Of a DNA stretch of 64,000 bases, positions 14,760 to 36,481 are shown one piece after another. The notes beneath the pieces are model-generated. The model was not told the origin of the DNA. It did no database searches and worked only from the letters and a program-made list of their open reading frames with translations. How positions within the stretch are numbered: the stretch's first letter is position 1; every line of letters starts with the position of its first letter. This stretch comes from a bacterium (lineage in GTDB: Bacteria > Patescibacteriota > Dojkabacteria > SC72): positions 110,027 to 174,026 of the forward strand of contig JAIORF010000102.1 in NCBI GenBank assembly GCA_021108295.1. The letters run 5' to 3'. Position numbers and translations under genes: made by a program.

Positions 14760-14963
14760 ATGAATTTAAACAAGAGAGATATGAGAACAATAGAAGATCA
14801 GATAGAAGAATTGTCAAGTAAGATGATTAAGATGGAATTTAAGGTAACTCAAATTGATGAAGAGAAGGAATTTGATTATCAAAAAGTATTAGCTACGATT
14901 AAATATCTTTATAAATATTATGATGATATGAATAAGGATCGGTCTATTAAGATTACATCATAG
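14760..14963 (+). CDS. Small hypothetical coiled-coil protein
   Basis: 67-aa charged ORF, convergent with gyrA and overlapping its stop by 11 nt; weak support. Confidence 0.3.
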
Positions 14964-20516: not shown

Positions 20517-22322
20517 ATGAGTAAAATTACACTTCTACAGTATTTAGAAAACAAGAAGATTATTAATTCAGCTGACGCTAATAAGGTGCGTGTTGAGAGG
20601 TCTCGCTCTCCAAAGAGTGAAGAGGCCATTATTCGAGAGCTTGGGGTTTTGGATAATGAGGCAATAGCTAGAGCAAAGGCTGAGATATTTGGTATACCAT
20701 ATATAGATTTGCGTAAGGTCCCAGTTCCCGAGAGTGTCATGGCAGAGGTGAATGTAGATAGTTTGCAGAAGTTTAATGCTGTACCGTTTGAAAGAGGTAG
20801 TGACTATGTGAAGATTGCAATGTTAGATCCTTTTGATGTACAGGCGACACAGGCATTACAACAGAAATATCCTTTTGGGACTAAAATACAGGTGCATATT
20901 ACAACCAAGGAGAGTATTAATTTTGTATTAGATCAGAGGGTTGGTGAATTGATGAGCTCAGAGGTTACAGATGCGCTAGAAGATGTGGAGTTACCAATTC
21001 AAGAGATTAGTGATGATCCTAGTCAGATTCTTTCGAGTGAGGAGTTGAGGAATGCTCCGGTTGCTAGGATTGTGAATGCCATATTGCAGTATGGGGTGAC
21101 TTCATCTTCTTCAGATATCCATATTGAGCCTATGGAGTTAAAGTTGAGGGTGAGATTTAGAATTAATGGTGTGATGACAGAACGCTTGGTGTTGCCCAAA
21201 AATCTTACAGCAGCTATTGCTTCTCGTATTAAAATATTGTCTAATTTAAAGATTGATGAGAAAAGATTGCCTCAGGATGGTAGGTTTCAGGTCAAAGTAG
21301 GTGGAAGTAAGGTGGATATTCGTGTTTCTGTGATGCCTACAATCTTTGGTGAGAAAGTAGTTATGCGTCTTTTAGAGTCTGATACTTCTGGAATCACTAT
21401 TGAAACGACGGGATTAAGAGGAAATGCGTACAAGGTTTTCTTGGATAGGATAAGGATAACGAATGGTATTGTACTTGTTACTGGTCCTACGGGTAGTGGA
21501 AAGACAAGAACTTTGGCGTGTGCTTTAATCAAGGTCAATGATCCTAAGGTGAATATCATGTCCTTGGAGAATCCTGTAGAAATACGTATCCCGGGTGTAA
21601 CTCAGATTCAGATTAAACCAGATATTGGATTGACTTTTGCGAATGCTCTTAGATCTGTACTTAGACAGGATCCTGATATCGTTATGGTCGGGGAGATAAG
21701 GGATAGGGAGACTGCTGAACTTGCTGTGCAAGCTTCATTGACTGGTCATTTAGTACTTTCTACTTTGCATACCAATAGTGCTGCTGCCGCTATACCTAGA
21801 CTTCTAGATATGGGCATTGAGCCATATCTTTTGGCTTCTACTATGCGTCTTGTTGTAGCTCAGAGATTGCCACGAAGGGTATGTAAGCACTGTATTGAAG
21901 CATATATTGCCAGTCCACAACTTGTGGAGGATATGGTGAGCCAATTCAAGAATATTCCTAGGTTTGATTTGGTTGGATATATTAACAAGGTAATAGCTTC
22001 TAAGAAACAAAAGGGTGAAGATGGGGCTTCTGTAATGCAGGAGGCGAAAATAGGACCAGATGGTAAGCCAGAGATATATCTTTACAAGGGTAAAGGTTGT
22101 GATAGGTGTGGGGGGAATGGGTATTCTGGAAGGATTGGTATATTTGAGGTGTTGGATGTTACTGAGAAAATAGGTAGAATGATAATGGATCAGTCTACTG
22201 CAGGAGAGATAGAGAAAGAAGCGAAGAGTATGGGGATGATGACTATGATGCAGGATGGGTATTTGAAATCTTTGGAAGGAATTACTACAATAGAGGAAGT
22301 AATGAGAGTGTCTAGGGAATAA
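20517..22322 (+). CDS. pilB: Type IV pilus assembly ATPase PilB (GspE family)
   Basis: N-terminal GspII_E domain, Walker A GPTGSGKTRTL, Asp box, His box, tetracysteine CKHC...CDRCGG zinc motif. Confidence 0.9.
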   Translation: MSKITLLQYLENKKIINSADANKVRVERSRSPKSEEAIIRELGVLDNEAIARAKAEIFGIPYIDLRKVPVPESVMAEVNVDSLQKFNAVPFERGSDYVKIAMLDPFDVQATQALQQKYPFGTKIQVHITTKESINFVLDQRVGELMSSEVTDALEDVELPIQEISDDPSQILSSEELRNAPVARIVNAILQYGVTSSSSDIHIEPMELKLRVRFRINGVMTERLVLPKNLTAAIASRIKILSNLKIDEKRLPQDGRFQVKVGGSKVDIRVSVMPTIFGEKVVMRLLESDTSGITIETTGLRGNAYKVFLDRIRITNGIVLVTGPTGSGKTRTLACALIKVNDPKVNIMSLENPVEIRIPGVTQIQIKPDIGLTFANALRSVLRQDPDIVMVGEIRDRETAELAVQASLTGHLVLSTLHTNSAAAAIPRLLDMGIEPYLLASTMRLVVAQRLPRRVCKHCIEAYIASPQLVEDMVSQFKNIPRFDLVGYINKVIASKKQKGEDGASVMQEAKIGPDGKPEIYLYKGKGCDRCGGNGYSGRIGIFEVLDVTEKIGRMIMDQSTAGEIEKEAKSMGMMTMMQDGYLKSLEGITTIEEVMRVSRE

Positions 22323-22349
22323 AATATTAATTACTTAAGTATAAAGGAA

Positions 22350-23756
22350 ATGGACAATACTGCTCAAAATGTTGGTGTGAATATTTCATATCCAAGTTTT
22401 AATAATGGGGCTAATACTACCCCTACTACTCCACTAGGGGGACCTGGTAGTGCTAATGGAGATTCTTTGAAGGATATTATTCCTGATGTGAAGAAGCCTA
22501 AGGCTGTGGAGCTCTCACCAGAGGAGAGCAATTTAGCAGAACCTACTGTGGAGCAGGATAATCGAGATGATAACTTTTTAATTCCACAGGAGAGTAAGGG
22601 GGATGTTGTTAATGACAAGAAGGAGGAAGTGAATCTGTCTGTACCAGAGACTGACGATCTCCCAGAGGAAAATATTGGTACGAATGTTGTGGGTAAGAGC
22701 AAGATGACTCAACTACTTGAGCATACAATTGAAAAAGGAGCTTCTGATTTACATATCTCTGTTGGGTATCCTCCAATTATACGTGTTGATGGGAAATTGC
22801 AAGAGATAAGTGATCAGATAATAGATCCTGTTGAGGCTGAGGAATTAATTCTCTCTCTTATTACTGATAACAAAAAAGAGTTGTTGGAAGTGAATAGAGA
22901 GATTGATTTTGCGTATAGCCATCAGGCTAAGTATGCTGGTAGATTCAGGGTTAACGCCTTCTATTCTATGAAGAGCCTTTCTGCTGCCTTCCGTCTTATT
23001 CCAACTAGGGTTAGAACTATAGAGGAGTTGAAATTACCACAGCTTTACCATCAATTCACACAACTTAAACAAGGGATGATACTTGTCACAGGTCCCACAG
23101 GACATGGTAAAAGTACAACATTAGCTGCAATGATAGAGGATATAAATAGAACTCGTTTTGCTCATATTGTTACCATAGAGGATCCAATAGAGTATCTTTT
23201 TGAGGGTAAGAAATCTCTAATAGACCAAAGAGAAATGGGACAGGATACTCATTCATGGCCTATTGCTCTTAAGAGTGCAATGAGGCAAGATCCGGATGTG
23301 ATACTTGTAGGAGAGATGAGAGATTACGAAACAATATCTGCTGCGATTACCTTGGCTGAAACAGGACACTTAGTATTTGCTACATTGCATACAAACAATG
23401 CGGCACAGAGTATAGATAGGATGATAGATGTCTTTCCAGAGGTACAGCAAGCACAGATAAGGGCACAATTATCAAACATTTTAGAAGCTGTTGTTGCTCA
23501 GAGGTTGATACCTCTTGATCATGGTGGAAGAATGGCTGTAGCAGAAATATTGATAGTGAACCCTGCAGTCAAGAATCTTATCCGCGAGGCAAAGACTCAT
23601 CAGGTTGACAATGTGATTAGAACAAGTTCAGATGTAGGTATGATTTCTTTAGAGAGATCACTAGTGCACTTAGTGAGGGAGGGTGTTATTAACATTAAAA
23701 CTGCTCAGGAGTTTGCTGTATATCCAGAAGAAGTAGCTAGATTATTAAAGTCATAA
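22350..23756 (+). CDS. pilT: Type IV pilus retraction ATPase PilT with a ~110-aa disordered N-terminal extension
   Basis: Walker A GPTGHGKSTT, PilT signature AVKNLIRE (AIRNLIRE), His box; N-terminal extension is low-complexity G/P/T/N/E-rich. Confidence 0.9.
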   Translation: MDNTAQNVGVNISYPSFNNGANTTPTTPLGGPGSANGDSLKDIIPDVKKPKAVELSPEESNLAEPTVEQDNRDDNFLIPQESKGDVVNDKKEEVNLSVPETDDLPEENIGTNVVGKSKMTQLLEHTIEKGASDLHISVGYPPIIRVDGKLQEISDQIIDPVEAEELILSLITDNKKELLEVNREIDFAYSHQAKYAGRFRVNAFYSMKSLSAAFRLIPTRVRTIEELKLPQLYHQFTQLKQGMILVTGPTGHGKSTTLAAMIEDINRTRFAHIVTIEDPIEYLFEGKKSLIDQREMGQDTHSWPIALKSAMRQDPDVILVGEMRDYETISAAITLAETGHLVFATLHTNNAAQSIDRMIDVFPEVQQAQIRAQLSNILEAVVAQRLIPLDHGGRMAVAEILIVNPAVKNLIREAKTHQVDNVIRTSSDVGMISLERSLVHLVREGVINIKTAQEFAVYPEEVARLLKS

Positions 23757-23760
23757 ATAT

Positions 23761-24993
23761 ATGAAGAAATTTAAATATTGGGCAAGAACACCAGATGGCA
23801 AAGAGGTTAAGGGTAGTTTAAATGCTAGAGACTTGAATGCTGTCTCTGAGATATTGCATGAGAGGGGGCTTGTAATTGTGAAAGTTAAGGACTCTTTTAG
23901 TCTTGATATGAAGAGGTTAACGGAGGTTAATATAGGGGGTGTACCTCTCAAAGAAAAAGTTGTATTTATGAGGCAGATGGCTACTATGGTGTCTGCAGGA
24001 TTAGCCATCACAAGGGCATTGGAAATAATGGAGCAGCAGATTGAGAACCCCCTTTTTCGAAGGGTAATATCCAATGTTAAGGTTGATATAGAATCCGGTA
24101 AGAGTTTGTCAGATGCGTTTAGAGCTCAGCAAGATATCTTTGATGATGTGACACTAAATCTTGTAGAGGCTGGTGAGTCTAGTGGTAAGTTGGATGTGGT
24201 TCTTGTGAAATTAGCGATAGAGTTAGAAGAGAAAAAGTCTTTGAATGCTAAGTTGAAGTCAGCATTGATTTATCCGATGATTATGCTTCTTGTTATTGTT
24301 GCTGTTGTGATACTTCTTATGTTTGTACTTGTTCCTGCGATGTCAGACATTTACGAGGAGTTTAATGCTACTCTCCCATGGACTACGACGGTACTTATTA
24401 ATGTAAGTGCTTTTGTTACCGATTATTGGTGGATTATCTTTATGGTTCTTGGTGTTGCTGTCATTGGTGGTAAAGCATATTTTGATACTCCTAAGGGAAA
24501 GAGGGTAATGGATAAGATAGTTATCAATATCCCTATTGTAAAGGATGTTGTGACCAAGATGCAGGTTGCTCAGTGTACAAGGATTTTGTCTCTCTTACTT
24601 TCTAGTGGTCTATCTATTGTTCGTGCATTAGAACTTACTGCAAATTCTTTATCGAATTCTCTGTTCAGGGATGTCTTACTAGATGCCAAAGATGATGTGG
24701 AGAAAGGAGGGTCCTTAACCCTTCCTATGTCTCGGAGTCAGTACTACCCTCTTCTTGTGAGTAGTATGATTGCTGTAGGTGAAGAGACAGGTAATTTGGA
24801 TGTCGTATTGGAAAAGATAGCACAGTATTACAAGGAGGAAGTTGATGAGGCTACGGGGAATCTTTCTTCCATACTTGAGCCTGTTTTCCTTGTTCTAATG
24901 GGAGTTACTATTGGTTTTATTGCTATGGCTGTATATATGCCTATGTTTCAATTAACAGAGGTGATGACTCAGTTGACAGTATGGTTGGTTTAA
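23761..24993 (+). CDS. pilC: Type IV pilus platform protein PilC (GspF family)
   Basis: Two GspF repeats, three TM segments, 410 aa; follows pilT by 5 nt. Confidence 0.9.
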   Translation: MKKFKYWARTPDGKEVKGSLNARDLNAVSEILHERGLVIVKVKDSFSLDMKRLTEVNIGGVPLKEKVVFMRQMATMVSAGLAITRALEIMEQQIENPLFRRVISNVKVDIESGKSLSDAFRAQQDIFDDVTLNLVEAGESSGKLDVVLVKLAIELEEKKSLNAKLKSALIYPMIMLLVIVAVVILLMFVLVPAMSDIYEEFNATLPWTTTVLINVSAFVTDYWWIIFMVLGVAVIGGKAYFDTPKGKRVMDKIVINIPIVKDVVTKMQVAQCTRILSLLLSSGLSIVRALELTANSLSNSLFRDVLLDAKDDVEKGGSLTLPMSRSQYYPLLVSSMIAVGEETGNLDVVLEKIAQYYKEEVDEATGNLSSILEPVFLVLMGVTIGFIAMAVYMPMFQLTEVMTQLTVWLV

Positions 24994-25039: not shown

Positions 25040-25597
25040 ATGAGAAAGAGTTTTAAAGCTTTTACACTTGTTGAGATGCTTATCGTCATGGGAATTATCA
25101 TAATCCTTATGGCTGTCGGTATTGCAAGTGGTAGAGCAGCATTGAGAAATGCAAATAAGATTGAGCATCAGAATGCTGCAGAGCAGATTTATCAAGCTAT
25201 GCAGGGTTACTATGCCGATAATAGAGAGTATCCAGCTGAGGCTACACCTGCAGTTTTACTAGCAGCAGATGGAGATCTTGATGAATATGTAGATGAATTT
25301 GATGGTGGTAGTGCAGCTACATATGCATATCTAGTAGATTCAACACAGCAAGAGTTCTTGGTATGTACGACCATTGGTGGTGCTGGTGATGTAGCACATC
25401 TTGGTATTTACTGTACAGGAAATGGTCTTTCTAGTGATTTAATTACTGGAACACCTACTACAAAATTCTCTGAGTATGTAGCATCTCCAACGGATTATGA
25501 TGATGTCAGGGTTTTATTTGTAGATGCAAATGCTATAGATTGGGACTCTGAGGGAGATTGGGGAACTACAAGGACTGATATTGCAGCTGTAGAGTAA
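25040..25597 (+). CDS. Major type IV pilin (class III signal peptide)
   Basis: MRKSFKA|FTLVEMLIVMGIIIIL: short basic leader, F at +1, E at +5, hydrophobic alpha1 helix. Ala at -1 instead of the canonical Gly. Strong terminator follows. Confidence 0.8.
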   Translation: MRKSFKAFTLVEMLIVMGIIIILMAVGIASGRAALRNANKIEHQNAAEQIYQAMQGYYADNREYPAEATPAVLLAADGDLDEYVDEFDGGSAATYAYLVDSTQQEFLVCTTIGGAGDVAHLGIYCTGNGLSSDLITGTPTTKFSEYVASPTDYDDVRVLFVDANAIDWDSEGDWGTTRTDIAAVE

Positions 25598-25620
25598 CCC
25601 GTTATTTTGTTAGAGATATC

Positions 25621-25642
25621 ACTCCCCTCTTTTGAGGGGAGT
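25621..25642 (+). terminator. Strong rho-independent terminator after the major pilin gene
   Basis: ACTCCCCTC-TTTT-GAGGGGAGT (9-bp GC-rich stem) followed by TTTGGTTATT. Confidence 0.7.
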
Positions 25643-25724
25643 TTGGTTATTACTACGAGCTATTGATGCGAAAAACGAATTAGGTTATCATTAAATACAA
25701 AATATATTTTATTATACAAAGTAA

Positions 25725-26621
25725 ATGAAAAAGAAAATTGTTCTAATAGTGCTTTCGATTGTTTTTGTAATACTACTTATAGCCTCTGTCCTATTTATTA
25801 CTAGGTACACATCTAGTGCAGATAAATATGCTTCCCTTATGAAGCTCTGTTTATCCAGTCAAGATGCTGGTGTCACAACTACCTCGTGTAAAGGGTTTGT
25901 AAAGTCGGTATCGGAAGAAGATTCTGCAAATCCATGCTTTGACTTACTTCTTATTACAGGAGAAGGAGAGTATGAGGAACATACAATGTGTGTGGAGGAC
26001 TCTATAGTGGAGTGGACCAATCCTTATGATGATTACACTAGTCTTATACCAGTGAATATAGATGTAAGTTATAAACAATTCTTGTCCTTAGATATCCTCT
26101 TTAGTGAGAGAGTAAAGATATCTCTTTTGGATGACGAAGAGACGTTTGCCTTTCTTGATAGTGATAATATAGTCGAGGAGAATTCTTCCTTATTTGCTAA
26201 CATCCGTATTCAAGAGAATGAGGCCATTATGGATAAAGGATATTATATGACGGGGAAAAGCGGTTCTGGTGTCTCTGATAATCTTGTGTTTATTCAAGTT
26301 GCAATAAGAGAGATTTTGATAGATGGTTCCGAGATGACTTTTCATCTAGTTAGTTCTATTGATGGCAAGAGGGTTATGTTTGAGGTAAATACAGAGGTTT
26401 TTGAGTATATGCAAGCAGTAGATTATGAGCAAGTAGTAACAGATATTACAGTATTAAATACTTCTGTCTTAGATGTTGAAGAGACCTACGATGTAGTATT
26501 TGTTATCAATCCTAATATTTTTGAATTGGAGGAGTTTATAGAATCAATGTTGTCCATTGATCAAGAGGGACCCTTTGTTATGGAGGGTTTGGAACTTATT
26601 CTGATGATGGCAAACTTTTAG
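25725..26621 (+). CDS. Hypothetical membrane-anchored protein in the pilus locus
   Basis: 298 aa, N-terminal signal-anchor IVLIVLSIVFVILLIASVLFI, acidic extracytoplasmic domain. Confidence 0.45.
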   Translation: MKKKIVLIVLSIVFVILLIASVLFITRYTSSADKYASLMKLCLSSQDAGVTTTSCKGFVKSVSEEDSANPCFDLLLITGEGEYEEHTMCVEDSIVEWTNPYDDYTSLIPVNIDVSYKQFLSLDILFSERVKISLLDDEETFAFLDSDNIVEENSSLFANIRIQENEAIMDKGYYMTGKSGSGVSDNLVFIQVAIREILIDGSEMTFHLVSSIDGKRVMFEVNTEVFEYMQAVDYEQVVTDITVLNTSVLDVEETYDVVFVINPNIFELEEFIESMLSIDQEGPFVMEGLELILMMANF

Positions 26622-26660
26622 GATCCTGCTTGTTTATAGATAAATTCATAGACATCATAT

Positions 26661-28487
26661 ATGTCCAACCCTGAGATAGGAGAGAGTAGTACTTTACAAG
26701 GAGGTTTAGATCCTAACCATTTTGGATTTAAGCCAAAAGCTCGGGATAGTCACGAGATTAGGACTCTTCCTAAAGGAGTTAAACCAGCAATATCAGCAGC
26801 AGTTTTAGCTGCAATAATGACGTCATCTGGAATAGTTGCTTGTACATCTAAAGAAAGCTCTGCTGCTCCAGTAGAACCAACTCCTACGGAACAGTATAAT
26901 CCAACTTTAGTAATGGAAACTCTTCCTGATCCTACAGATGTTGGAGCAACTTTTACCCCAGTCCCACCACCTACTCTAGAGCCTACTGAAGTAATAGAAA
27001 AAGAAGTCGACTTTTTGGGAATGATGGAAGGTCTTGAGGTAGTATCTAGAGAGGAAGTAAGCAGTGTTTATGAAACAATTCAAGGGACAACGGTTTTTGA
27101 GATCCCAGTTACAGAAGGAAAGAGAAGCTTTGTAGATAGCTCAAGAGCAGTATCTATGTATGAGATGGGAGCAGGAATACTTCTTCCAGGGTCTGAGGTA
27201 GTAACAATGGTAGATGGACAAGGTGTAGAAATTAAAATGGTCATTGTGGAAGATATTTTAACATCTGGTGATAACAAATCAATCTTAGTTCTAGTTGTAA
27301 AGGATAAGGAAGGAGAGCTCTTCACTACAGAGCAAGAGGATAGTGGAGCCTTAGTTACTGGAGTAATTCCTAACTTTAGAGAATATACTCCTGAGCAGGT
27401 TGAAACTTTATCCCAATCTTTAGAGAAGTTTAGGGAATATCAGGAACAAATGGGAGCATTTAGGAATGGAGCTAAATATCCTTACAGTCTTGTATTTGGA
27501 GAGGGAGAGAATGAGGTGATATCTTTTCTTGGAGAGATGATGAAAAGGTTGAATGAAAGCGATTCTACAGAACCGGACTTTATTGCAAAATTTGATGAAT
27601 ATGTAAACTCTCGGCTTACTTTGACAGAAGATGGTGCTCTGATAGTTACTTTTCTTCAAGAGGATACATTGCTCCAAAGTGACTTATCAGATCTTTCTGT
27701 AGGAGGGTTTCCTCCCCAAGAGTCCCCGTCAAGTAAGGGAATGACTTTAGAAGAAGAGGAAATGGTAGAGAGTTTAGTAAATTTGTCAGGAATGGGAGTT
27801 TTTCTTAATGACCCAAAGCAGAAAGAACAAGTGTTGGAGTTTGTAAAGTTTAGAGATGCTCTGAATGGTTCTAATGGGAGTGTAGAGGGATTAGGAAAGA
27901 TAAATACAGATAATGAGAATATGAATAATGCAATGGAGTTTCTAGCAAATTTTGTTGAGCAAGGTGGTGAGTGGAACTCAATAGCTTTAGCATACGCTTT
28001 AAGAATAGCATTTCCAGATTTAGGAGTCCCCAAGCTTGGTGATAAGCCACAAGGGACTGTTGTAGAAGTTTTTAGAGATAATAGTGATCCTCGGCTTAGT
28101 GAGGGTATTCCAATTATGATAGATGTGATGAATTTAGGGTATGACTTTCCACAGTTAGCAATTATCCCAACTCTTTATGGTGGATCAATAGCCTTGGGGC
28201 CTCCAGAAGATTTATATCCTAAATTGGATAGTGGAAGTATTATTTTTCGTAAAAATATAGAGATTAAGGAGAATCCAGAAATGGATAAATTACAAGTAGT
28301 TCTTGCTAAAAGTGTGGCAAGTGATGGGAGTATCTCCTATCTTATTGTCGAGCTTGACGAAGAAGGAAAAATGATAGTATATACAAGCCAAGATAATAAG
28401 GATGAGTTGATTGCAAATAAGCAGTGGGTTATAAAGGATGGATATAGTGGACCTAACATTTTCCCTTCTTCACCACCAGGGGGATAA
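26661..28487 (+). CDS. Hypothetical secreted protein or lipoprotein in the pilus locus
   Basis: 608 aa. Hydrophobic segment ending in a lipobox-like IVAC after a long n-region, PT-rich linker, large soluble domain. Confidence 0.5.
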   Translation: MSNPEIGESSTLQGGLDPNHFGFKPKARDSHEIRTLPKGVKPAISAAVLAAIMTSSGIVACTSKESSAAPVEPTPTEQYNPTLVMETLPDPTDVGATFTPVPPPTLEPTEVIEKEVDFLGMMEGLEVVSREEVSSVYETIQGTTVFEIPVTEGKRSFVDSSRAVSMYEMGAGILLPGSEVVTMVDGQGVEIKMVIVEDILTSGDNKSILVLVVKDKEGELFTTEQEDSGALVTGVIPNFREYTPEQVETLSQSLEKFREYQEQMGAFRNGAKYPYSLVFGEGENEVISFLGEMMKRLNESDSTEPDFIAKFDEYVNSRLTLTEDGALIVTFLQEDTLLQSDLSDLSVGGFPPQESPSSKGMTLEEEEMVESLVNLSGMGVFLNDPKQKEQVLEFVKFRDALNGSNGSVEGLGKINTDNENMNNAMEFLANFVEQGGEWNSIALAYALRIAFPDLGVPKLGDKPQGTVVEVFRDNSDPRLSEGIPIMIDVMNLGYDFPQLAIIPTLYGGSIALGPPEDLYPKLDSGSIIFRKNIEIKENPEMDKLQVVLAKSVASDGSISYLIVELDEEGKMIVYTSQDNKDELIANKQWVIKDGYSGPNIFPSSPPGG

Positions 28488-28598
28488 TGAAATTAGAATT
28501 ATTGAATAGAAACTTTATTATTAACTCCAAACCCTTGATGATAAGAAAGAATTAGTTTATTATTAAGTAGAAACTATATTCTAATAATTTAGTAACAA

Positions 28599-31223
28599 AT
28601 GAAAAAGAAAACTGTCTTAGCTATATTTATCGTTTTGTCAAGTTTAGTCTTAGGAAGTTTCATCTTTAAGAGTGATGTTTCTGCATATGACTGTAGGGCT
28701 ATGGGGATGCAATGTCAGGCACCTCATGGAAGTTTTACAAGAAATGTTTGGCAGTGGTATAGAACATTCTACTGCTACAAGCAGACGTGGAGGGTTTATT
28801 ATCGATGTTATGGTAACGATAGAAATTGTACAGGAGGTCATTACTATTATCGAACTTCGGCAGATTGCTGGGCGAAACGTCGTATCAGATTCGCTGGTTG
28901 TTGTGAGGAGATTTCTTGTACCCCCGGCTGTACCCCTCCTGCCTGTCCCTCAGGGACCTCTGCTTCAGGCACAGGAGACTTGTATACCCCTCGTCCTAGT
29001 TGTAGAGACGATTGTGGAGATAGACACTATCGTAATTGTTGGTATGACTGTACAGACCCTACCTGCCAAGAACTTAACTCAGAACTGTATGATGTATGTC
29101 CTGGAGGACAAACCTGTGGAGGTCCTGTCACTATCACCTACACCGACTCAGTAGCCTGTGGAGGAGCTACGCATAGCAAACAATGTGTATTCGTAAGAAA
29201 TAGTCGTCCAGTTAGTACAGACCTCACTATTTACTACGGAGACTTTGGTACAGTCCAAGGAACCCATACTAGCCAATCACCATGGTTTAATAAGATTGTG
29301 AAAAGCCTCTCTGCACAAGAACTAGAAGGTGGAGTAGACCGAATACTAGGATTCACATCTACAGAATACTCCGGAAGTAGCCTTAACAACCCAATCAAAA
29401 TACGAGCAGAATACCAAGATGCCGACGGTTCTAACGATATTGTAGCCATCTATGTATGGTGGTCTGAAAGTGAGACAGTAGATTTCATTACCCCAGATAG
29501 AATAGCGGCTGCCTCTGAAGGCCTCTCTTCTCAATCGGAAAGTGAAGACTCTTGGGGCTTTATGCTAAGACGTGTGGGAGGAAGTTGGACTACAGTATAC
29601 TCACCATATATCAGTAGTACTGATGCAGCTTGGGTTGAAATAGGGTATGTAGGAGGAGGTTCGTCTCCTTCCTCTATTCTCTCTCCTTCTGGCGAAGAAA
29701 TGGCTGTTCTCCATAATGTTGAGGTTACTGATATCTCTGGAGGTAGAGTAGAAATAGAACTCTTACTAGAATTCGTAAACTCGGGGACTAGTCCAGCAAT
29801 AGCTGAAGGAGAATACAAGATATGGAACTTTGCTAATGATGTAGACGGGTTCTTACCGTTTGAAAGTGATCCAGATATAGAAGATGTGATAGTGGATAAC
29901 GACCTTTGGGAAGATAGTACAATGGATTGGAATCTTGATTTAGAAGAACCAAGTATTTGGGCAGAAACTATATCCGAAGTAAGTGACGGAGTTCTAGCTC
30001 TTGATTTTAATGTGTCTGATATAGATAACTTCGGACTCTCCTATGTACGCATAGATGCGTGTAGGACGGGAGGAAGTACTACTGATGTCCTTACACCTAC
30101 ACTTAACGGTGTTCCTGGTAGTTCTTACACCATGCCAACCTGTGATGCATGTTCCTCTTTCTCTGGTATAGATATAACGAGTGATCTAGATCTCTTAGGA
30201 GGCGATGGAACAATCCTTAGTTCTACTACTCATACATACTCCCCAATGACCTTAAGAGTAGCGCTAAATTCTAACGAAAACGGAGCTATAACCTTCTGGA
30301 TAACAGCAATGGATATGGCAGGTAACTACCAACAATCCACAATAATTTACGAACTAGGAAAATGGATGATAGCTACGGATGGTTTTGTGTACGGAACCGA
30401 CGGAGTAAGTGCAAATACGAGGAATATAGCAGATGGTGTATGGAATGCTCCTTCTGAATTGTTTAATTATAACTTTGATGAACCAACCGCAGATTTAACA
30501 GATTTGGTCCTTTTGGGAGGTCATAATAATACGGCAAGCTTCTTGGGTATGTTAGTGAAATACAATGAGAACAATTCTTTTAAAGTTGCTCACTTCCCTG
30601 GAGTCTATATTAATTCTCCTTATACAGAACTTTTAGCAGCTTACAATGCTAAAACAGAGAATCTCTTGCTAGATTACGATGAAATTAGTGATACAAGTAT
30701 TAGTGGTAATCTTACCAGTCTTTTTGGTGCAGTTCATGACTACTATATAGTGAATAATAGTGGGGATACAACCATAAGCTCTAGCTTTGTATGTGATGGA
30801 CAAGGATTGATAATGGTAGATGGTGATATAACTATCACACCCGATGTTGTAAATAGTACGGCTTTGGATGCATGTATAGTGCTTGCTTCGGGAGATATAA
30901 TAATCGAGGATGGTAGTAATAAGACTGATTCTGGTGCGTTTGGGTATGATTTACTCCACGCGTTCCTCATTGCTAACGGAGAGATAATTATAGACGCTGA
31001 CGCTCACAATGATGGTTTACTGGTAGAAGGGGGTTTGGTAGCTTTTACGCCAAATACTGCTAGTGGGGCTATAGTAAACAACAGAGAAATGGATGTAGCT
31101 ACCTCTAATATTTATCCAATATTAGCAGTGAACAACAATGCTAAGTATGGATTACTAAGTAAAGTTCTCTTTGGTTCTCAAATAGATGTGTTTAAGCTTG
31201 AGATTGGGTTTAAGCCTTACTAG
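28599..31223 (+). CDS. Large secreted Cys-rich protein (candidate pilus-associated adhesin or tip protein)
   Basis: 874 aa. Signal peptide, then ~170 aa with more than 25 cysteines and locally elevated GC, then a long beta-rich region with GDI(T/I)I repeats near the C-terminus. Confidence 0.55.
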   Translation: MKKKTVLAIFIVLSSLVLGSFIFKSDVSAYDCRAMGMQCQAPHGSFTRNVWQWYRTFYCYKQTWRVYYRCYGNDRNCTGGHYYYRTSADCWAKRRIRFAGCCEEISCTPGCTPPACPSGTSASGTGDLYTPRPSCRDDCGDRHYRNCWYDCTDPTCQELNSELYDVCPGGQTCGGPVTITYTDSVACGGATHSKQCVFVRNSRPVSTDLTIYYGDFGTVQGTHTSQSPWFNKIVKSLSAQELEGGVDRILGFTSTEYSGSSLNNPIKIRAEYQDADGSNDIVAIYVWWSESETVDFITPDRIAAASEGLSSQSESEDSWGFMLRRVGGSWTTVYSPYISSTDAAWVEIGYVGGGSSPSSILSPSGEEMAVLHNVEVTDISGGRVEIELLLEFVNSGTSPAIAEGEYKIWNFANDVDGFLPFESDPDIEDVIVDNDLWEDSTMDWNLDLEEPSIWAETISEVSDGVLALDFNVSDIDNFGLSYVRIDACRTGGSTTDVLTPTLNGVPGSSYTMPTCDACSSFSGIDITSDLDLLGGDGTILSSTTHTYSPMTLRVALNSNENGAITFWITAMDMAGNYQQSTIIYELGKWMIATDGFVYGTDGVSANTRNIADGVWNAPSELFNYNFDEPTADLTDLVLLGGHNNTASFLGMLVKYNENNSFKVAHFPGVYINSPYTELLAAYNAKTENLLLDYDEISDTSISGNLTSLFGAVHDYYIVNNSGDTTISSSFVCDGQGLIMVDGDITITPDVVNSTALDACIVLASGDIIIEDGSNKTDSGAFGYDLLHAFLIANGEIIIDADAHNDGLLVEGGLVAFTPNTASGAIVNNREMDVATSNIYPILAVNNNAKYGLLSKVLFGSQIDVFKLEIGFKPY

Positions 31224-31234
31224 TTTGCAGTGGT

Positions 31235-32050
31235 TTGATATATAATGGACATATGCAGATTATCTTAATCATATTCGCCTTTTTAGTAGGTATTGTATCT
31301 GCTAGTTTTCTTAATGCTTTGATGTATAGGTTGGATAAAGAATATAAGTATCCAAACATATTTGTTAAACCTTCTCATTGTGAGAAGTGTAATAAACAAT
31401 TAAAGAGTTATGATCTTGTTCCTATCTTGTCATACATCTTTTCTAGAGGTAAATGTAGTAAGTGTGGGTCTAAGATTACAGTCTACTATCCGATATCCGA
31501 GTTGATACTGGGTATTTCTTTTGCATTATTCTTTTTGAATGGTGTGTCATGGTTTATGTATTTTGTTTTAATCTTTCTCTTCTGTCTCTGCTATTTTGAT
31601 TATATTTATAAAGCTATACCCCAAGTCCCTACTCTACTATTTAATGTGTTGGGTATAATGTATGTGATAGTATTATCTGTTGTTGCGAAAGAGTTGGTAC
31701 TAAATGCTCTTCTCTCAGGGATATTGCTCTTGTCTGGTATGTGCATATTGCTAATTGTAATGTACGGAATTAAGGGTTTTACTATTAAAGATGGTCTAGA
31801 AGGATTAGGTAGTGGTGATTTCCTCATTCTTTTTGGTTTAAGTATGCTTTTGTCTATAGAACAGTTTTGGGTGATGTTCTGGATATCAATTCTACTTGCA
31901 CTACTCTTCTTTATACCGAGTTCCATATTAGGAAAGATGAATTTGAAATCCTCTCTTCCACTTCTACCTTTCTTTACTTTGGGATATATCGTAGTGGTAG
32001 TGTATGGTGAGAGTATATTTGAATATGTAGAGGGTGTGTTGATGATGTAG
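31235..32050 (+). CDS. pilD: Prepilin peptidase PilD (A24 family)
   Basis: N-terminal CEKC...CSKCG zinc-finger-like motif, 6-8 TM helices, catalytic Asp motifs FDYIYKAIP and GSGDFLILFG. Confidence 0.85.
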   Translation: MIYNGHMQIILIIFAFLVGIVSASFLNALMYRLDKEYKYPNIFVKPSHCEKCNKQLKSYDLVPILSYIFSRGKCSKCGSKITVYYPISELILGISFALFFLNGVSWFMYFVLIFLFCLCYFDYIYKAIPQVPTLLFNVLGIMYVIVLSVVAKELVLNALLSGILLLSGMCILLIVMYGIKGFTIKDGLEGLGSGDFLILFGLSMLLSIEQFWVMFWISILLALLFFIPSSILGKMNLKSSLPLLPFFTLGYIVVVVYGESIFEYVEGVLMM

Positions 32051-32112
32051 AGGGTTTACTAGGAGGTATTGATGACAAAAGGTATTTCGGCTATTATAGA
32101 GAGTGAAGTAAA

Positions 32113-32787
32113 TTGATTTACTGCCTAATGGAAAAGATAAGAGCGTATACATTAATGGAAATGTTAATTGTTATGACCATTATGGTGATTCTTCTCTCCG
32201 TTGGTATTTATTCATATGCCTCTTTTGCAAAGACTACTCAGTTTAATCAAGATGTGGCAGATATCCAAAATGATGTATTAATTATGCAAAGAGCTGCTAT
32301 GCTCTTTGAGAAAGATCCTGATGAATATTGGTTGTACGGTATTGGAATTGATTTTGAGGATCTTAGTAGTGGTGACGGGAAATATTCTTTTTTTAAGTGG
32401 TGTTCGGAGTATCCTGATTTCGGTGGTGTGAGGACTAAGAGTGAGTATCCTAATTACGATCCAGCCTATTCGTTTAGTGAGACTAACGGGAATATTCCAA
32501 CAGGTATATCTGAAGGGACTTGTAATGGCGCAATGAAGTTGGTTAAGTTGTCTGGATATGGTGTAGGGAATTTAAATCTGGATGAGGATGTATCTATTGC
32601 AAATGGTAGGTTTCTTCTTTTTGAAGCTGTGTCTGGTAGAGCTTTTATCTATGATTCTAGTGGTGTTTTGGTAAATGATGCAAATATTGAGATTACTTTG
32701 GATAAGAGGGTTGGTGATATACATGTGTTAGTTATTAAAAATTTAACAGGTAGAATTGAATTAATTAATATAGGGGATGATGAATAA
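32113..32787 (+). CDS. Minor pilin / pseudopilin
   Basis: (M)EKIRA|YTLMEMLIVMTIMVILL prepilin N-terminus with E at +5 and Ala at -1. Confidence 0.7.
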   Translation: MIYCLMEKIRAYTLMEMLIVMTIMVILLSVGIYSYASFAKTTQFNQDVADIQNDVLIMQRAAMLFEKDPDEYWLYGIGIDFEDLSSGDGKYSFFKWCSEYPDFGGVRTKSEYPNYDPAYSFSETNGNIPTGISEGTCNGAMKLVKLSGYGVGNLNLDEDVSIANGRFLLFEAVSGRAFIYDSSGVLVNDANIEITLDKRVGDIHVLVIKNLTGRIELINIGDDE

Positions 32788-33346
32788 AAGAATAAAAGCT
32801 TTGGGTTTTGTAGAAGTTATGATTGCTATAGTGGTAGTTGGTATTGTGTCTGCTGTTTTTCTTACCATTTCTGCTAGAGCAATGAAGGCTCTTGTACAAA
32901 CAGAAAGATTGGAATATATGTCTAGGATTGCTACGGATGGTGCCAATATTGCACAAGAGGTAGCTAATCAACAAAAGGCAGCATTAACTGGCGAGGGTCC
33001 TTACTTCCCCTCAGAGGCTATTGATGTAGGACGCTGTTTTATTCCGTTTAGAGAAGAGAGTGGAGAAAATGTGTTTTACTACTTCTTACGTGAGGAGGGA
33101 GGTATGGAGGGGCAGTTCATTTCAATTCTTAATGGTGATGATACGGAGACACGAGACCTTTTTATAGAAAATGGTGCAGATACACATGAAGACTATTTTC
33201 TTGTGATGTGTATTCAGTCTATGGATGCTACAGGTACTAGATGGGCTAATGTCGAGTTTAGGGTGGGTGATGTAAAGTTGGCTGGTGTACGAACTACGGA
33301 TAGTGATCTTAAAGATTTTAAATATTATGCCATTATTGATTTATGA
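32777..33346 (+). CDS. Minor pilin / pseudopilin
   Basis: MMNKRIKA|LGFVEVMIAIVVVGIV prepilin-like N-terminus (E at +5 if cleaved after KA). Confidence 0.6.
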   Translation: MMNKRIKALGFVEVMIAIVVVGIVSAVFLTISARAMKALVQTERLEYMSRIATDGANIAQEVANQQKAALTGEGPYFPSEAIDVGRCFIPFREESGENVFYYFLREEGGMEGQFISILNGDDTETRDLFIENGADTHEDYFLVMCIQSMDATGTRWANVEFRVGDVKLAGVRTTDSDLKDFKYYAIIDL

Positions 33347-34038
33347 AGAACTTTTTTAAAGCTTTTAGTTTGGTAGAGATGATAATTACGTTAGGTATTC
33401 TTTCTATAGTTATGCTTATAGCTACACAAACTCTTGTCACTATTGTTAGAGTTTCTTCTATTTCCAAATACAAAACGGTTACTAAGAATGAAATAGGGTT
33501 TTCCATGGAGTTAATAGATAGGTTGTTGTCGAATTCTAGTGTCGCTGATGTTTATGTGTATGATACTATTAATGCAAGACAGTATGATCCAGAGGCTGAA
33601 GCTATAGTAGAGGTTGATCCAGGGACTTATAATTTAGATGAGATATATAGTATAGAATTAGCCCCTGGGATTACTGGTAACGAAATACATGTTAGACCGT
33701 ATGGGTATGATATCTGGGCTTGCATAGCTCTTTTTATGGATGTAGACAATAGTAAGGGATATCTTGTGAAAAGAACAATGGGAAGTTTTGCTGATGGTCA
33801 TAAGTCTTGTTTTGATACAGGTGTTTCTCTTTCAGATCCCCTACTCGTTTTGGTGTCTGATGAGGTAATGGTTAATGAGTTTAAGGTGTCATATACTCAG
33901 AGTTCTTCTAACAACAACATCTTTTATGTAGATCTTGAGATGGAGCCTATATATTGGGTGGGTGGTAGTCATGCTGCTATAGGGAAGACTGTTTTTAGAC
34001 AGGCTGTAATTACAACTCAGGGTTTGACGTGGTATTAA
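33343..34038 (+). CDS. Minor pilin / pseudopilin
   Basis: MKNFFKA|FSLVEMIITLGILSIV prepilin N-terminus; overlaps the previous gene by 4 nt. Confidence 0.7.
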   Translation: MKNFFKAFSLVEMIITLGILSIVMLIATQTLVTIVRVSSISKYKTVTKNEIGFSMELIDRLLSNSSVADVYVYDTINARQYDPEAEAIVEVDPGTYNLDEIYSIELAPGITGNEIHVRPYGYDIWACIALFMDVDNSKGYLVKRTMGSFADGHKSCFDTGVSLSDPLLVLVSDEVMVNEFKVSYTQSSSNNNIFYVDLEMEPIYWVGGSHAAIGKTVFRQAVITTQGLTWY

Positions 34039-34042
34039 TTTA

Positions 34043-34987
34043 TTGTTAAATTATTGTATGATGAAAAAATATTACAAGGGACAGGCGTTAGCGATAGTTA
34101 TGGTGGTTTTAGTGGTTGCATCTATTATTGGTGTATCACTTTTCTCTAGGATAAGTAAGGATAAGGAGTCGGCGATTAATCAGCAGGACTCTGCTTTGGC
34201 AGAGGAGCAGTCTGATGGTATATTGGATATTTTTGTGGGTGCCGATGTTATAGCTTTGGAAACTAAAATAAGGGAAGGTGTGGGACCGTTTGAGAGTATC
34301 TCTAGTTCAGAGTTCGCCTCTTTTATTACTGATATTGGTGGAGATCCCGATGCATTACCTGATGAGGATGTAGGATGTCAGGAGGAGAGTTCAAGCATAT
34401 TGGTTACTGTTGGGCAGAGTGATGATGATGATTTTGTAGAAGTACAGCATGGTAGTGTGAGAGTTTATAGTTTAGATGGTGCTACGGTAGTAGCTCCATG
34501 TCTTCTAACTTGGAGATTTAGACCTGTAGATGAATCAGTTGCTTTCCTTGTTGCGTATATTATGAATGATGGGAGTGTTGTCACACAATCTGAAGAACAC
34601 TATTGTGTCACTTCAGATGGTTCTGCTTGTACTACAATTGAGAATGTAGAATATCTTAGTAGTTTTCTAAATACCGGAGATATGGCATCAGTTGGAGTTA
34701 TGGATGCTGATGGTGCTTATCCTAGGACTATTGATCTTGTTGCTAGGTTTGCAGCTGATGTGATAGAGATTCGTGTTATTCCTATTGCTGGTACATTGGC
34801 TGTGGCTGATTCGTTGAATGATGTGACCTGTATTGATAGGGAGTTTAGGTCTATTAAAGTTCGTTCGGAGGTTAATTGCAATGGTTCTTATAGGGGGAAG
34901 GAGATGCTTTTACCAGGTTCTGGTAATCTTGGTTATTCTCCTCTTTTTGATTATGCTATTTATGATAATGGTTTATTTCAACCTTAA
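34043..34987 (+). CDS. Pilin-like protein lacking Glu5 (PilX/ComGG-like candidate)
   Basis: MMKKYYKG|QALAIVMVVLVVASIIG hydrophobic N-terminus without E at +5. Confidence 0.4.
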   Translation: MLNYCMMKKYYKGQALAIVMVVLVVASIIGVSLFSRISKDKESAINQQDSALAEEQSDGILDIFVGADVIALETKIREGVGPFESISSSEFASFITDIGGDPDALPDEDVGCQEESSSILVTVGQSDDDDFVEVQHGSVRVYSLDGATVVAPCLLTWRFRPVDESVAFLVAYIMNDGSVVTQSEEHYCVTSDGSACTTIENVEYLSSFLNTGDMASVGVMDADGAYPRTIDLVARFAADVIEIRVIPIAGTLAVADSLNDVTCIDREFRSIKVRSEVNCNGSYRGKEMLLPGSGNLGYSPLFDYAIYDNGLFQP

Positions 34988-35007: not shown

Positions 35008-35391
35008 ATGGATAATAAAAAAACAATATTAATTATCGAAGACGAAAAGGTTTTGTTAGGGTCGTACTCAGAGGCTTTGGAGTCTAAAGGGTATTCTGTA
35101 TTAAAGGCCTTGGATGGTTACAAGGGGTTGGATATAATAGCGGAGAATATTGGTAAGATTAGTTTGATCCTTCTCGACCTTATGATGCCAGGTGTAGATG
35201 GTTTAGAAGTTCTTAGAACTATCAAGGATGATAAAGATAAGTATGGTAGTGTTCCCATTATTGCTCTTACCAACATGACATCAGAGAAGGTTATTAAGGA
35301 TGCTTTTGATTTGGGTGCGACATCATATTTAGTGAAAACGGACTTGGATTATGAGGGGTTAATAAAAGAGGTTAATAAATTCTTGGGTTAG
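35008..35391 (+). CDS. Stand-alone CheY-like response regulator receiver
   Basis: ILIIEDE, DLMMPGVDG (phospho-acceptor Asp), T and K positions conserved; 127 aa, no output domain. Confidence 0.8.
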   Translation: MDNKKTILIIEDEKVLLGSYSEALESKGYSVLKALDGYKGLDIIAENIGKISLILLDLMMPGVDGLEVLRTIKDDKDKYGSVPIIALTNMTSEKVIKDAFDLGATSYLVKTDLDYEGLIKEVNKFLG

Positions 35392-35449: not shown

Positions 35450-36481
35450 ATGGCTAAACTGCCTGACCATGTAGGTGTTGATTTCGGTACACACTCAGTG
35501 AAAGCTGTCGAGCTTAAAGATATCACTACCCCTACTCCACAACTGGTTAATTTTGGAAGCCAAACAACTCCACAGGGTGTTATCAACAGTGAGGATAAAA
35601 ATGATCAGAAGAAATTATCTGAGGTGCTCAAGAAGCTCTATGGAGATAGTAAGATTAAGAACAAATCTGTAGTAGTTGCATTGCCTGAGTTTTCTGTATT
35701 TACTCGATTTCTAGAATTCCCTGGAGTAAAAAAAGAAGAGCTAGAAGATGCAGTTTTCTATGAAGCTAAACAATATATTCCAGTACCAATAGATGAGGTG
35801 AGAATGAGTTATGTAACCATTGGTTTTAATGAAGCTAAGAATGCTCCTCGTGTACTTCTTGTAGCTGCTCCTCTCAAGATTATAGATATATACAGAGATA
35901 TATGTGAGATGGCAGCATTAGATGTAATTGCAATAGAAACAGAGTCTGTAGCATTAGGAAGAGCCATGTATAGAGCTACTAAACAAAAGCATGTTGTTAT
36001 GTTGGATTTTGGTGCGAATAGTACAGATATGAGCATAATGCTCGATGGATATCTAGTGTTCTCTCAGAGTATCTCTATTGGGTCCGATTCTTTGACACAG
36101 TCAATAATTAATAAGTTTAATTTTGAGTATAAGCAGGCTGAGGAATACAAACGTAACTATGGAGTTGTAAAGAATGTCCTTGAAGGGAAAATATATCAAG
36201 TACTCTCCCCTATTCTGGAATCTATAATGCTTGAAGTAAGAAGAGGTATAGAGTTTTATAAAAACAAAACACTTGCACCTGCACCTACAAACTTTCTTCT
36301 TACTGGAGACGGTGCATTGCTTCCAGGTTTGTCGGAGTACATATCTTTTGCCTTAAATGTAAATGCTTCTATAGCTAACCCTTGGATGAACATTGTAGTG
36401 GATCAAAAATTTAAAGACATTATTTCCAAGAGTGGGCCTTCTTACTCTGTAGCAATTGGATTAGCACTTAAAGATGAATAA
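35450..36481 (+). CDS. pilM: Type IV pilus assembly protein PilM (actin-like ATPase fold)
   Basis: VGVDFGTHSVKAVEL N-terminal phosphate-1 motif, ~340 aa. Confidence 0.85.
   Translation: MAKLPDHVGVDFGTHSVKAVELKDITTPTPQLVNFGSQTTPQGVINSEDKNDQKKLSEVLKKLYGDSKIKNKSVVVALPEFSVFTRFLEFPGVKKEELEDAVFYEAKQYIPVPIDEVRMSYVTIGFNEAKNAPRVLLVAAPLKIIDIYRDICEMAALDVIAIETESVALGRAMYRATKQKHVVMLDFGANSTDMSIMLDGYLVFSQSISIGSDSLTQSIINKFNFEYKQAEEYKRNYGVVKNVLEGKIYQVLSPILESIMLEVRRGIEFYKNKTLAPAPTNFLLTGDGALLPGLSEYISFALNVNASIANPWMNIVVDQKFKDIISKSGPSYSVAIGLALKDE

Follow-up and report, generated by a model that had tools for sequence, protein, structure and literature searches.

The window analysed here, a 64-kb stretch of DNA from an uncultured, monoderm member of Candidatus Dojkabacteria (WS6, Patescibacteria; candidate phyla radiation) with a G+C content of ~37%, carries the core of a T4aP-like pilus locus (Table 1). 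The gene order is pilB-pilT-pilC-pilA, followed further downstream by pilD, three minor pilin genes, a gene for a pilin-like protein that lacks the glutamate at position +5 from the cleavage site (Glu5), and pilM; the first three genes (20517..24993, + strand) adjoin the major pilin gene on its upstream side. Two small membrane-protein ORFs downstream of pilM probably encode PilN and PilO. With PilT, PilM, and probable PilN/O, and without a comGA-comGG operon, this is a retractile T4aP-like machine.

Table 1. Features of the pilus locus, with positions counted from the first letter of the window; slashes mark predicted cleavage sites, and profile matches are given as E-values or bit scores.
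Feature	Position	Strand	Length (aa)	N-terminus	Profile matches and remarks
PilB assembly ATPase	20517-22322	+			T2SSE 3e-122, MshEN
PilT retraction ATPase	22350-23756	+			T2SSE 8e-49
PilC platform protein	23761-24993	+			T2SSF 3e-60
Major pilin	25040..25597	+	185	MRKSFKA/FTLVEML	Glu+5; predicted cleavage Ala7 (GCT, 25058-25060)/Phe8; PF07963 24.9 bits (above cut-off), TIGR02532 14.6 bits
Prepilin peptidase PilD	31253..32050	+	265 (from ATG)		ORF opens at TTG 31235; homologues start at MQI
Minor pilin 1	32128..32787	+	219	MEKIRA/YTLMEML	Glu+5; predicted cleavage before Tyr; PF07963 20.6 bits, TIGR02532 20.1 bits
Minor pilin 2	32777..33346	+	189	MMNKRIKA/LGFVEVM	Glu+5; predicted cleavage before Leu; PF07963 17.4 bits (below cut-off), TIGR02532 no match
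Minor pilin 3	33343..34038	+	231	MKNFFKA/FSLVEMI	Glu+5; predicted cleavage before Phe; PF07963 26.2 bits, TIGR02532 21.4 bits
Fifth pilin-like protein, Glu5-less, PilX_N-like	34061..34987	+			ORF opens at TTG 34043; PF14341 E=0.0098 (weak)
Single-domain response regulator	35008-35391				Response_reg 2.5e-21
PilM	35450..36481	+			PilM_2 3.9e-55

A six-frame scan of the whole window, which looked for a short leader with basic residues ending in a tiny one, followed by Glu at +5 and a hydrophobic stretch, found exactly four class III prepilin N-termini, and all four have Ala at -1 (codons GCT, GCG, GCT, and GCT, in gene order). Their leaders are 6-8 residues long, counting the -1 Ala, and each contains Lys or Arg; Glu is at +5 in all four, and 13-16 of the next 16 residues are hydrophobic. 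The basic leader, tiny -1 residue, and Glu+5 within a hydrophobic tract of ~21 residues that describe a bacterial type IV prepilin (IPR012902) are thus present in every case, where "tiny" means Gly or Ala, as in PMC7212644; under the older "invariably Gly" rule (PMC4471445) the four prepilins would fail. Minor pilin 1 probably begins at ATG 32128, inside an ORF that opens at TTG 32113, a start supported by the orthologue at the most closely related locus (L001), which begins MEKVKA/YTLME. The start of the minor pilin 2 gene overlaps the end of the minor pilin 1 gene, and the minor pilin 3 gene has an ATGA overlap with the minor pilin 2 gene. PF07963 (N_methyl) matched all four pilins, two of them above its cut-off of 21.2 bits, and TIGR02532 (cut-off 16.3 bits) likewise placed two above. 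Changing the -1 Ala to Gly in silico raised the PF07963 score by only 3.4-3.9 bits (~3.7), which brings three of the four above the cut-off; this gain amounts to a roughly 12:1 preference for Gly and not to invariance.

The earlier note had placed cleavage after Lys/Arg-Ala, and this predicted register is backed by the orthologues. One pair of orthologues, for example, reads MNRKYSG/FTLVEMLIVMGII and MRKSFKA/FTLVEMLIVMGII, with the same mature sequence after different leaders. For the major pilin, the 120 best homologues have 98 Ala, 21 Gly, and 1 Ser in the -1 column before near-identical mature N-termini; orthologues of minor pilin 2 read KA/LGFVE, KG/LGFVE, or KS/LGFVE, and those of minor pilin 3 KA/FSLVE or [KE]G/FSLVE. 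Because Dojkabacteria orthologues with identical mature N-termini place Gly, Ala, or Ser in one column, the cleavage register is fixed. The alternative that Ala is not the cleavage site, and that a different cut, a different start, or a lack of processing makes "Ala at -1" an annotation artefact, could draw on the two pilins under the PF07963 cut-off and the two that TIGR02532 scores under its cut-off or leaves unmatched. However, a stop codon bounds each prepilin ORF upstream, the leaders are 5-7 residues long, Glu+5 can be obtained in no other register, and the same motif in Streptococcus pneumoniae is experimentally cleaved after Ala (PMC3694846). Internal starts or downstream Gly residues that would create a G-1/E+5 register, the case that the earlier note had set against its own reading, were looked for in the four prepilin ORFs, and none was found. 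Together with the one-column alignment, these observations make an artefact very improbable.

The earlier claim that all recognisable prepilins here use Ala holds for the four canonical prepilins but not for the fifth, Glu5-less pilin-like ORF. Its N-terminus, MKKYYKG/QALAIVMVVLVV (KKYYKG/QALAIVM), has Gly (GGA) at the putative -1 position, and 16 orthologues follow the pattern [GA]/QA[LI]AI[IV]M, with Ala in L001, L002, L013, and L016 and Gly in the rest. The window therefore differs at this position from its closest relative, L001, whose PilD is 78% identical. This protein is a putative PilD substrate.

The distribution of the -1 residue follows lineage. Across the nine loci of the monophyletic subclade to which the window belongs, the 33 canonical pilins have 32 Ala, 1 Ser (in a pilin of L004), and no Gly. 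The other Dojkabacteria loci (L005-L023 and L032-L041) are syntenic and have the same four pilin families, the Glu5-less fifth, and near-identical mature N-termini, but their -1 residue is mostly Gly (78%) with scattered Ala and Ser (87 Gly, 18 Ala, 5 Ser; 22% non-Gly and about 16% Ala). Loci with distant PilDs have 128 Gly, 6 Ala, and 3 Ser (about 7% non-Gly and about 4% Ala). At these background Ala frequencies (about 4% or about 16%), the chance of four Ala in four pilins is at most 7e-4. Rare in the background and fixed in the subclade, the Ala is more than chance and is a lineage signature, as had been proposed. The leaders differ throughout, with [FI]-K-A in the subclade versus Y-[SKE]-G elsewhere. 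The first set of the genome scan contains 11 other Dojkabacteria loci that combine Gly with Ala or Ser pilins, and a second tally gives 13 mixed loci, the window and L022 included. Low G+C content was rejected as a compositional cause of the Ala residues, GGN and GCN codons being equal in G+C. Gene conversion among the pilin N-termini was likewise rejected: each pilin has a mature N-terminus of its own, which shows that the Ala codon was not copied from gene to gene. The evenness of the subclade is a counterpoint to tolerance: the complete fixation of Ala in 4-5 paralogous pilins across nine loci exceeds the uniformity expected if tolerance were purely neutral, and hints at a real change in the enzyme.

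The peptidase encoded beside these pilins has the expected parts. PilD matches PF06750 (A24_N_bact, the four-Cys N-terminal domain; E=3.2e-26), and its PF01478 (Peptidase_A24) score of 23.9 bits lies just under the cut-off of 26.5, with most close homologues carrying a precomputed PF01478 match. An alignment of 30 homologues, which took in canonical PilDs from Victivallales, Anaerostipes, and Alteromonadaceae, has R26, C43, C46, C68, C71, D116, G186, G188, and D189 invariant. These include the two catalytic aspartates of an A24A peptidase, Asp116 and Asp189 (the latter in the GxGD motif G186-S-G188-D189), and the two Cys-x-x-Cys pairs of its N-terminal domain (C43/C46 and C68/C71), a domain linked to Zn-dependent methyltransferase activity (PMC3584216). 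All nine subclade PilDs share the motif K-E-G-[FL]-G-x-G-D-F-[LI] and an insertion of 6-11 residues just before GxGD, whereas other Dojkabacteria PilDs, 35-43% identical to that of the window, have K-K-P-F-G-x-G-D and no insertion. By its sequence, PilD appears to belong to the ordinary A24 peptidases, with the motif and the insertion before GxGD as features specific to its clade. A profile scan of about 20 kb around each PilD for a second prepilin peptidase found a single PilD at virtually all of the loci, the window included. PilD was modelled for comparison with solved structures such as FlaK, as the earlier note had suggested. The AF2 model is good (pLDDT 87, pTM 0.85) and places the insertion as a loop and short helix directly before the catalytic GxGD, where model confidence is lowest, but FlaK was the only relative found in the PDB, and its match is weak both by Foldseek (3s0x_A; probability 0.60, TM 0.35/0.40, E=1.6) and in a profile search of the PDB (E=0.21). 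No structure of a bacterial PilD came up in either search, the PDB searches made gave no substrate-bound structure, and the comparison says nothing about the S1 pocket.

Set against known systems, the locus shares pilB, pilT, pilC, pilD, pilM, and one major with several minor pilins with the canonical T4aP loci of Pseudomonas, Neisseria, and Clostridium. Its pilins, like theirs, have Glu+5 and a short leader, and its PilD is likewise of the bifunctional type, with two aspartates and a four-Cys domain. The locus differs from them in the -1 residue, which is Gly in canonical T4aP pilins (and in all the clostridial "pil" pilins listed from the PilFind training set), and in the peptidase, where canonical GxGD-[VI]-K-L is replaced by GxGD-F-L-I-L. 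The Com pilus of Streptococcus and Staphylococcus (ComGC-ComGG, with ComC/PilD) is also that of a monoderm, has Ala at -1 throughout its pilin set, and, like the window, ends its series with a pilin lacking Glu5 (ComGG, encoded last in its operon, there, the fifth pilin-like protein here; PMC7212644; PMC8727766), a resemblance that is functional only. The best NCBIfam matches of the window's major pilin, both sub-threshold, are ComGE and ComGC. However, Com pilins are about 100 aa long versus 185-231 aa here, the comGA-comGG operon lacks PilT and PilMNO, its hosts are Bacillota, and the ComGC/D/E/F equivalog HMMs score the window's pilins at 14-30 bits against cut-offs of 49-80 (for example, 25.9 versus 75). 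Given PilT, PilM, the long pilins, and these low scores, membership in the Com system was rejected.

The earlier note had regarded Gly as near-invariant in bacteria and Ala as characteristic of archaea. A 2015 review took this view, with Gly invariant in bacterial and Ala or Ser common in archaeal class III signals (PMC4471445), but it is overstated. Top-down mass spectrometry showed that ComGC of S. pneumoniae is cut after Ala15 and then carries an N-methyl group (PMC3694846); in S. sanguinis and S. pneumoniae, every ComG pilin has Ala as the last leader residue (PMC7212644; PMC8727766); PilFind allows [GAS] at -1 (PMC3244431); and the cost of Ala to the Pfam score is small. Ala at -1 is a known, tolerated variant that is not specific to archaea, and it marks no new kind of system. 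A class III system of archaeal type, or one gained by horizontal transfer, with FlaK/PibD-like processing has in its favour that Ala (or Ser) is accepted at -1 in the substrates of FlaK, PibD, and EppA, yet archaeal pilins often lack Glu5, which all four pilins here have, and archaeal peptidases lack the bacterial N-terminal domain that PilD retains. The machinery is PilB, PilT, PilC, and PilM, the close homologues are all from Dojkabacteria or Patescibacteria, and FlaK resembles PilD weakly in both sequence and fold. Domain content and homologue taxonomy thus refute a FlaK-PibD system, and we give this explanation next to no credence.

It is most probable that the four prepilins carry ordinary bacterial class III signals in which Ala takes the place of Gly as the tiny residue at -1, and that PilD tolerates tiny residues. 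From the sequences we infer cleavage, methylation, and enzyme preference as follows. The prepilins would be inserted in the membrane with a basic leader of 5-7 residues in the cytoplasm, and the locus's own PilD, a GxGD aspartyl protease of the A24 family, would cut between Ala-1 and Phe, Tyr, or Leu at +1 and probably N-methylate the new N-terminus, after which Glu+5 would be used in filament assembly. Ala would be accepted because a tiny side chain at -1 is all that prepilin peptidases require. Strom and Lory reportedly found in 1991 that some cleavage persisted in P. aeruginosa when Ala replaced Gly-1. Gly, Ala, and Ser interchange at -1 throughout Dojkabacteria, often beside one PilD, and the window's subclade has become fixed for Ala. 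This fixation may accompany a shift in PilD preference, which is possible in the subclade; a strict requirement for Ala is supported by nothing.

The earlier note read the four Ala residues as implying a PilD with altered specificity. Such a switch, in which the subclade PilD co-evolved with its substrates, now prefers or requires Ala over Gly, and was followed by all canonical pilins, is not demonstrated by that count, given the 11 other Dojkabacteria loci that mix -1 residues beside a single PilD. The altered S1 region would then be formed by the K-E-G-[FL]-G-x-G-D-F motif and the insertion, both common to the nine subclade PilDs, absent from other Dojkabacteria, and, for the insertion, directly adjacent to the catalytic GxGD in the model; the absence of Gly from the subclade compared with 22% non-Gly in sister lineages, and the change of whole leaders, also point in this direction. 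However, the fifth pilin-like gene of the window keeps Gly at a position that is Ala in its closest relative, Ser occurs in one pilin of the subclade, and sister lineages handle Gly, Ala, and Ser sets with one PilD. The residue two before GxGD is Pro (K-K-P-F-G) in Gly-dominant loci and Pro is absent where Ala and Ser are more frequent, but canonical PilDs that serve Gly pilins have Gly there, like the Ala clade; the motif is not simply tied to -1, and the pattern follows phylogeny, from which the PilD differences cannot be separated at all. Because single-PilD loci mix Gly with Ala or Ser and the window's fifth pilin-like protein keeps Gly, tolerance of tiny residues suffices without a switch, which we consider unlikely, though far less so than an artefact or an archaeal system. 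If a switch did occur, nature would have supplied, in the window PilD and the PilDs of Gly-dominant Dojkabacteria, whose substrates are otherwise the same, a contrast from which to map the S1 determinant of A24 prepilin peptidases.

Our literature search found no report on Dojkabacteria pili or on Ala at -1 in Patescibacteria. The locus adds a non-Bacillota, T4aP-like case to the evidence that prepilin processing needs only a tiny residue at -1, and corrects the view that Gly is invariant in bacteria. The graded rise of non-Gly residues (about 7%, 22%, and 100%), together with the PilD motif of the clade, gives comparative work on the specificity of prepilin peptidases an inexpensive starting point. 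For annotation, profiles based on "GFxxxE" under-call pilins here, with two of four below the PF07963 cut-off and two of four failing TIGR02532, and the pilus gene content of Patescibacteria may be underestimated as a result. Many homologues have no Pfam match.

The interval 25040-34038 lies within a type IV pilus locus, and a six-frame scan of the 64 kb for a tiny residue followed by four residues, Glu and a hydrophobic tract near a start codon returned just four N-termini, those of the major pilin and minor pilins 1-3. An earlier note had described all four as carrying Ala rather than Gly at -1, and the scan and the -1 codons show this to be correct as written; neither another start codon nor a Gly further downstream offers a second register with Glu at +5. 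The proposed cleavage after Lys/Arg-Ala is also supported by homologue alignment. The nearest homologues of PilD (the prepilin peptidase, family A24) are annotated as Candidatus Dojkabacteria, candidate division WS6 or Patescibacteria, and a profile built on 30 PilD homologues led to 27 loci in species-representative genomes and to metagenome loci, of which 80 of ~570 were used. Each of the four pilins has syntenic orthologues in these loci with almost identical mature N-termini, preceded by Gly (MNRKYSG/FTLVEMLIVMGII), Ala (MDRKYSA/FTLVEMLIVMGIL) or Ser (MKRNIKS/FTLVEMLIVMGII), and among the best 120 database homologues of the major pilin the -1 residue is Ala 98 times, Gly 21 times and Ser once. 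Because the canonical -1 Gly of the orthologues aligns exactly with the Ala of the window, cleavage would fall behind Ala, for which this shared column is the strongest available sequence evidence; the predicted mature pilin would begin FTLVEMLIVMGIIIILMAVGIASGR.

Features of the pilus locus and other genes discussed (window positions unless another PilD-bearing locus, L002 or L015, is named; a slash marks the predicted cleavage site)
Feature	Position	Strand	N-terminus	-1 codon
GyrA homologue (910 aa)	14953-17685	-		
pilB	20517-22322	+		
pilT	22350-23756	+		
pilC	23761-24993	+		
Major pilin	25040-25597	+	MRKSFKA/FTLVEML	GCT
298-aa ORF, no family match	25725-26621	+		
608-aa ORF, no family match	26661-28487	+		
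874-aa ORF, no family match	28599-31223	+		
pilD (ORF opens at TTG 31235; homologues begin at ATG 31253)	31235-32050	+		
Minor pilin 1	32128-32787	+	MEKIRA/YTLMEML	GCG
Minor pilin 2	32777-33346	+	MMNKRIKA/LGFVEVM	GCT
Minor pilin 3	33343-34038	+	MKNFFKA/FSLVEMI	GCT
Glu5-less pilin-like gene	34043-34987	+		
Response regulator	35008-35391			
pilM	35450-36481	+		
Member of the family of the 874-aa protein, L002	17985-20753			
Member of the family of the 874-aa protein, L015	16041-18608			

In a neighbour-joining PilD tree, the window forms one clade with L001-L004 and L028-L031, PilD-bearing loci of other genomes and metagenomes; L031 was assigned to it from its identity, its motif and its pilin leaders rather than from the tree. 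Counting canonical pilins near PilD, with metagenomes represented by 80 of ~570 loci, the nine loci of this subclade have 32 Ala, 1 Ser and 0 Gly at -1 (100% non-Gly), compared with 22% non-Gly in 30 other Dojkabacteria loci (Gly 87, Ala 18, Ser 5) and ~7% in 53 loci with a distant PilD of <35% identity (Gly 128, Ala 6, Ser 3). The last figure agrees with an independent estimate: with Gly substituted for Ala in silico, the four pilins gain 3.4-3.9 bits against the Pfam N_methyl profile, a Gly:Ala preference of ~12:1. Even at the Dojkabacteria rate, four Ala out of four would arise by chance with a probability of at most 7e-4. To judge from these sequences, the use of Ala is an inherited, fixed trait of the clade, which bears out the earlier suggestion of a lineage signature. 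The four mature N-termini differ, so the Ala codons were not copied from one pilin gene to another, and base composition is ruled out as a cause, GGN (Gly) and GCN (Ala) being equal in G+C. Outside the subclade, few or no Gly-1 pilins are found near PilD in L020, a Microgenomates-labelled MAG (S,A,A,S,A), L011 (A,G,A,A,G) and L067 (G,A,A); Gly at -1 has probably been lost on more than one occasion within the candidate phyla radiation.

The window PilD itself reads as an ordinary bacterial A24 peptidase. Its A24_N_bact domain is matched at E=3e-26; the four Cys, Asp116 and Gly186-x-Gly188-Asp189 are invariant across the 30 homologues; the Peptidase_A24 score (23.9 bits) is slightly below the 26.5 cut-off; and the AF2 model is confident (pLDDT 87, pTM 0.85). 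PDB matches included no bacterial PilD, the sole relative being FlaK, a weak match (profile E=0.21; Foldseek probability 0.60, TM 0.35-0.40). In all Dojkabacteria PilDs the GxGD is followed by [FIL]-L-[IV]-L (residues 186-193 of the window PilD), without the Lys two residues past Asp that most more distant PilDs carry (GxGD-[VI]-K-L).

That four Ala out of four imply a PilD of altered specificity, as had been proposed, is unproven; at most, preference may have shifted. A strict switch of the subclade PilD is at odds with the 11 other Dojkabacteria loci of the genome scan in which Gly pilins occur with Ala and/or Ser pilins (13 mixed loci in the fuller count, which includes the window and L022): with one PilD gene per locus in the profile scan, the PilDs of mixed loci must accept Gly, Ala and Ser. 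Within the subclade, too, one pilin (in L004) has Ser, and the fifth, Glu5-less pilin-like protein of the window reads KKYYKG/QALAIVM, with Gly. A shift of preference is possible, given that fixation is complete over four to five paralogues in nine loci and that all nine subclade PilDs share K-E-G-[FL]-G-x-G-D-F-[LI] with a 6-11-residue insertion directly before the catalytic GxGD, where other Dojkabacteria PilDs have K-K-P-F-G-x-G-D; in the AF2 model of the window PilD, confidence is lowest in this segment, where K-E-G-[FL] and the insertion fall at residues ~170-185. However, these PilD differences are fully confounded with phylogeny. Canonical Gly-serving PilDs likewise carry Gly two residues ahead of GxGD, so that no specificity determinant can be named. 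We consider it rather unlikely that the motif and insertion mark a real change in S1.

The contention that Ala at -1 is archaeal and Gly near-invariant in bacteria is overstated and out of date, as Ala leaders are known in bacterial ComG pilins. In S. sanguinis all five ComG pilin leaders, processed by ComC, end in Ala, and ComGG, the last encoded, is the sole ComG pilin without Glu5 (PMC8727766). The PilFind motif is [GAS]-x4-[DE], and the training-set entries listed with it include S. aureus com pilins (KAFSLIE, SAFTMIE, QAFTLIE) and a Listeria pilin (PAFTLLE), the clostridial 'pil' pilins listed there all having Gly (PMC3244431). The window resembles the competence (Com) pilus of monoderm Bacilli in that the whole pilin set has Ala at -1, the last member lacks Glu5 and the host is monoderm. 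However, identity with a Com system was rejected on account of its PilT and PilM, the length of its pilins and ComG equivalog scores far short of threshold. From its gene content and leaders, the locus would be best described as a T4aP-like Dojkabacteria locus using an Ala version of the class III signal that is already known; we found no paper describing Ala at -1 in Dojkabacteria or other Patescibacteria. The N-terminus of the fifth gene is conserved across orthologues as [GA]/QA[LI]AI[IV]M, with Ala in the closest relative, L001 (KKYYKA/QALAIVM), in place of the window's Gly and the same alternation elsewhere. Its last position and lack of Glu5 recall ComGG in the Com pili of streptococci and also those PilX proteins of Saccharibacteria for which no PilD signal is predicted (PMC11623550).

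Profiles centred on GFxxxE under-call such pilins, missing half of those here: PF07963 and TIGR02532 each pass two of the four, minor pilin 2 failing both, and many database homologues lack Pfam annotation or go by the name 'hypothetical protein'. Overlaps between the minor pilin genes (11 nt at 32777-32787; ATGA at 33343-33346) suggest translational coupling of the set. The 468-aa PilT has its ATPase domain from about residue 119, behind a low-complexity acidic/Pro-rich N-terminal extension. Two ORFs sit as insertions within the pilus operon, one of 298 aa with an N-terminal membrane helix and three homologues, all weak, the other of 608 aa without a Pfam match or a homologue among the 27 genome loci. 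The 874-aa protein, lying between the major pilin and pilD, is secreted, has a Sec signal peptide and is Cys-rich in its N-terminal region; Pfam gives no match. One or two members of its family lie downstream of the pilin genes in most pilus loci of Dojkabacteria, and it may be a pilus-associated adhesin. In the GyrA homologue, the match to the DNA_topoisoIV domain is split in two, which suggests an insertion inside the N-terminal domain.
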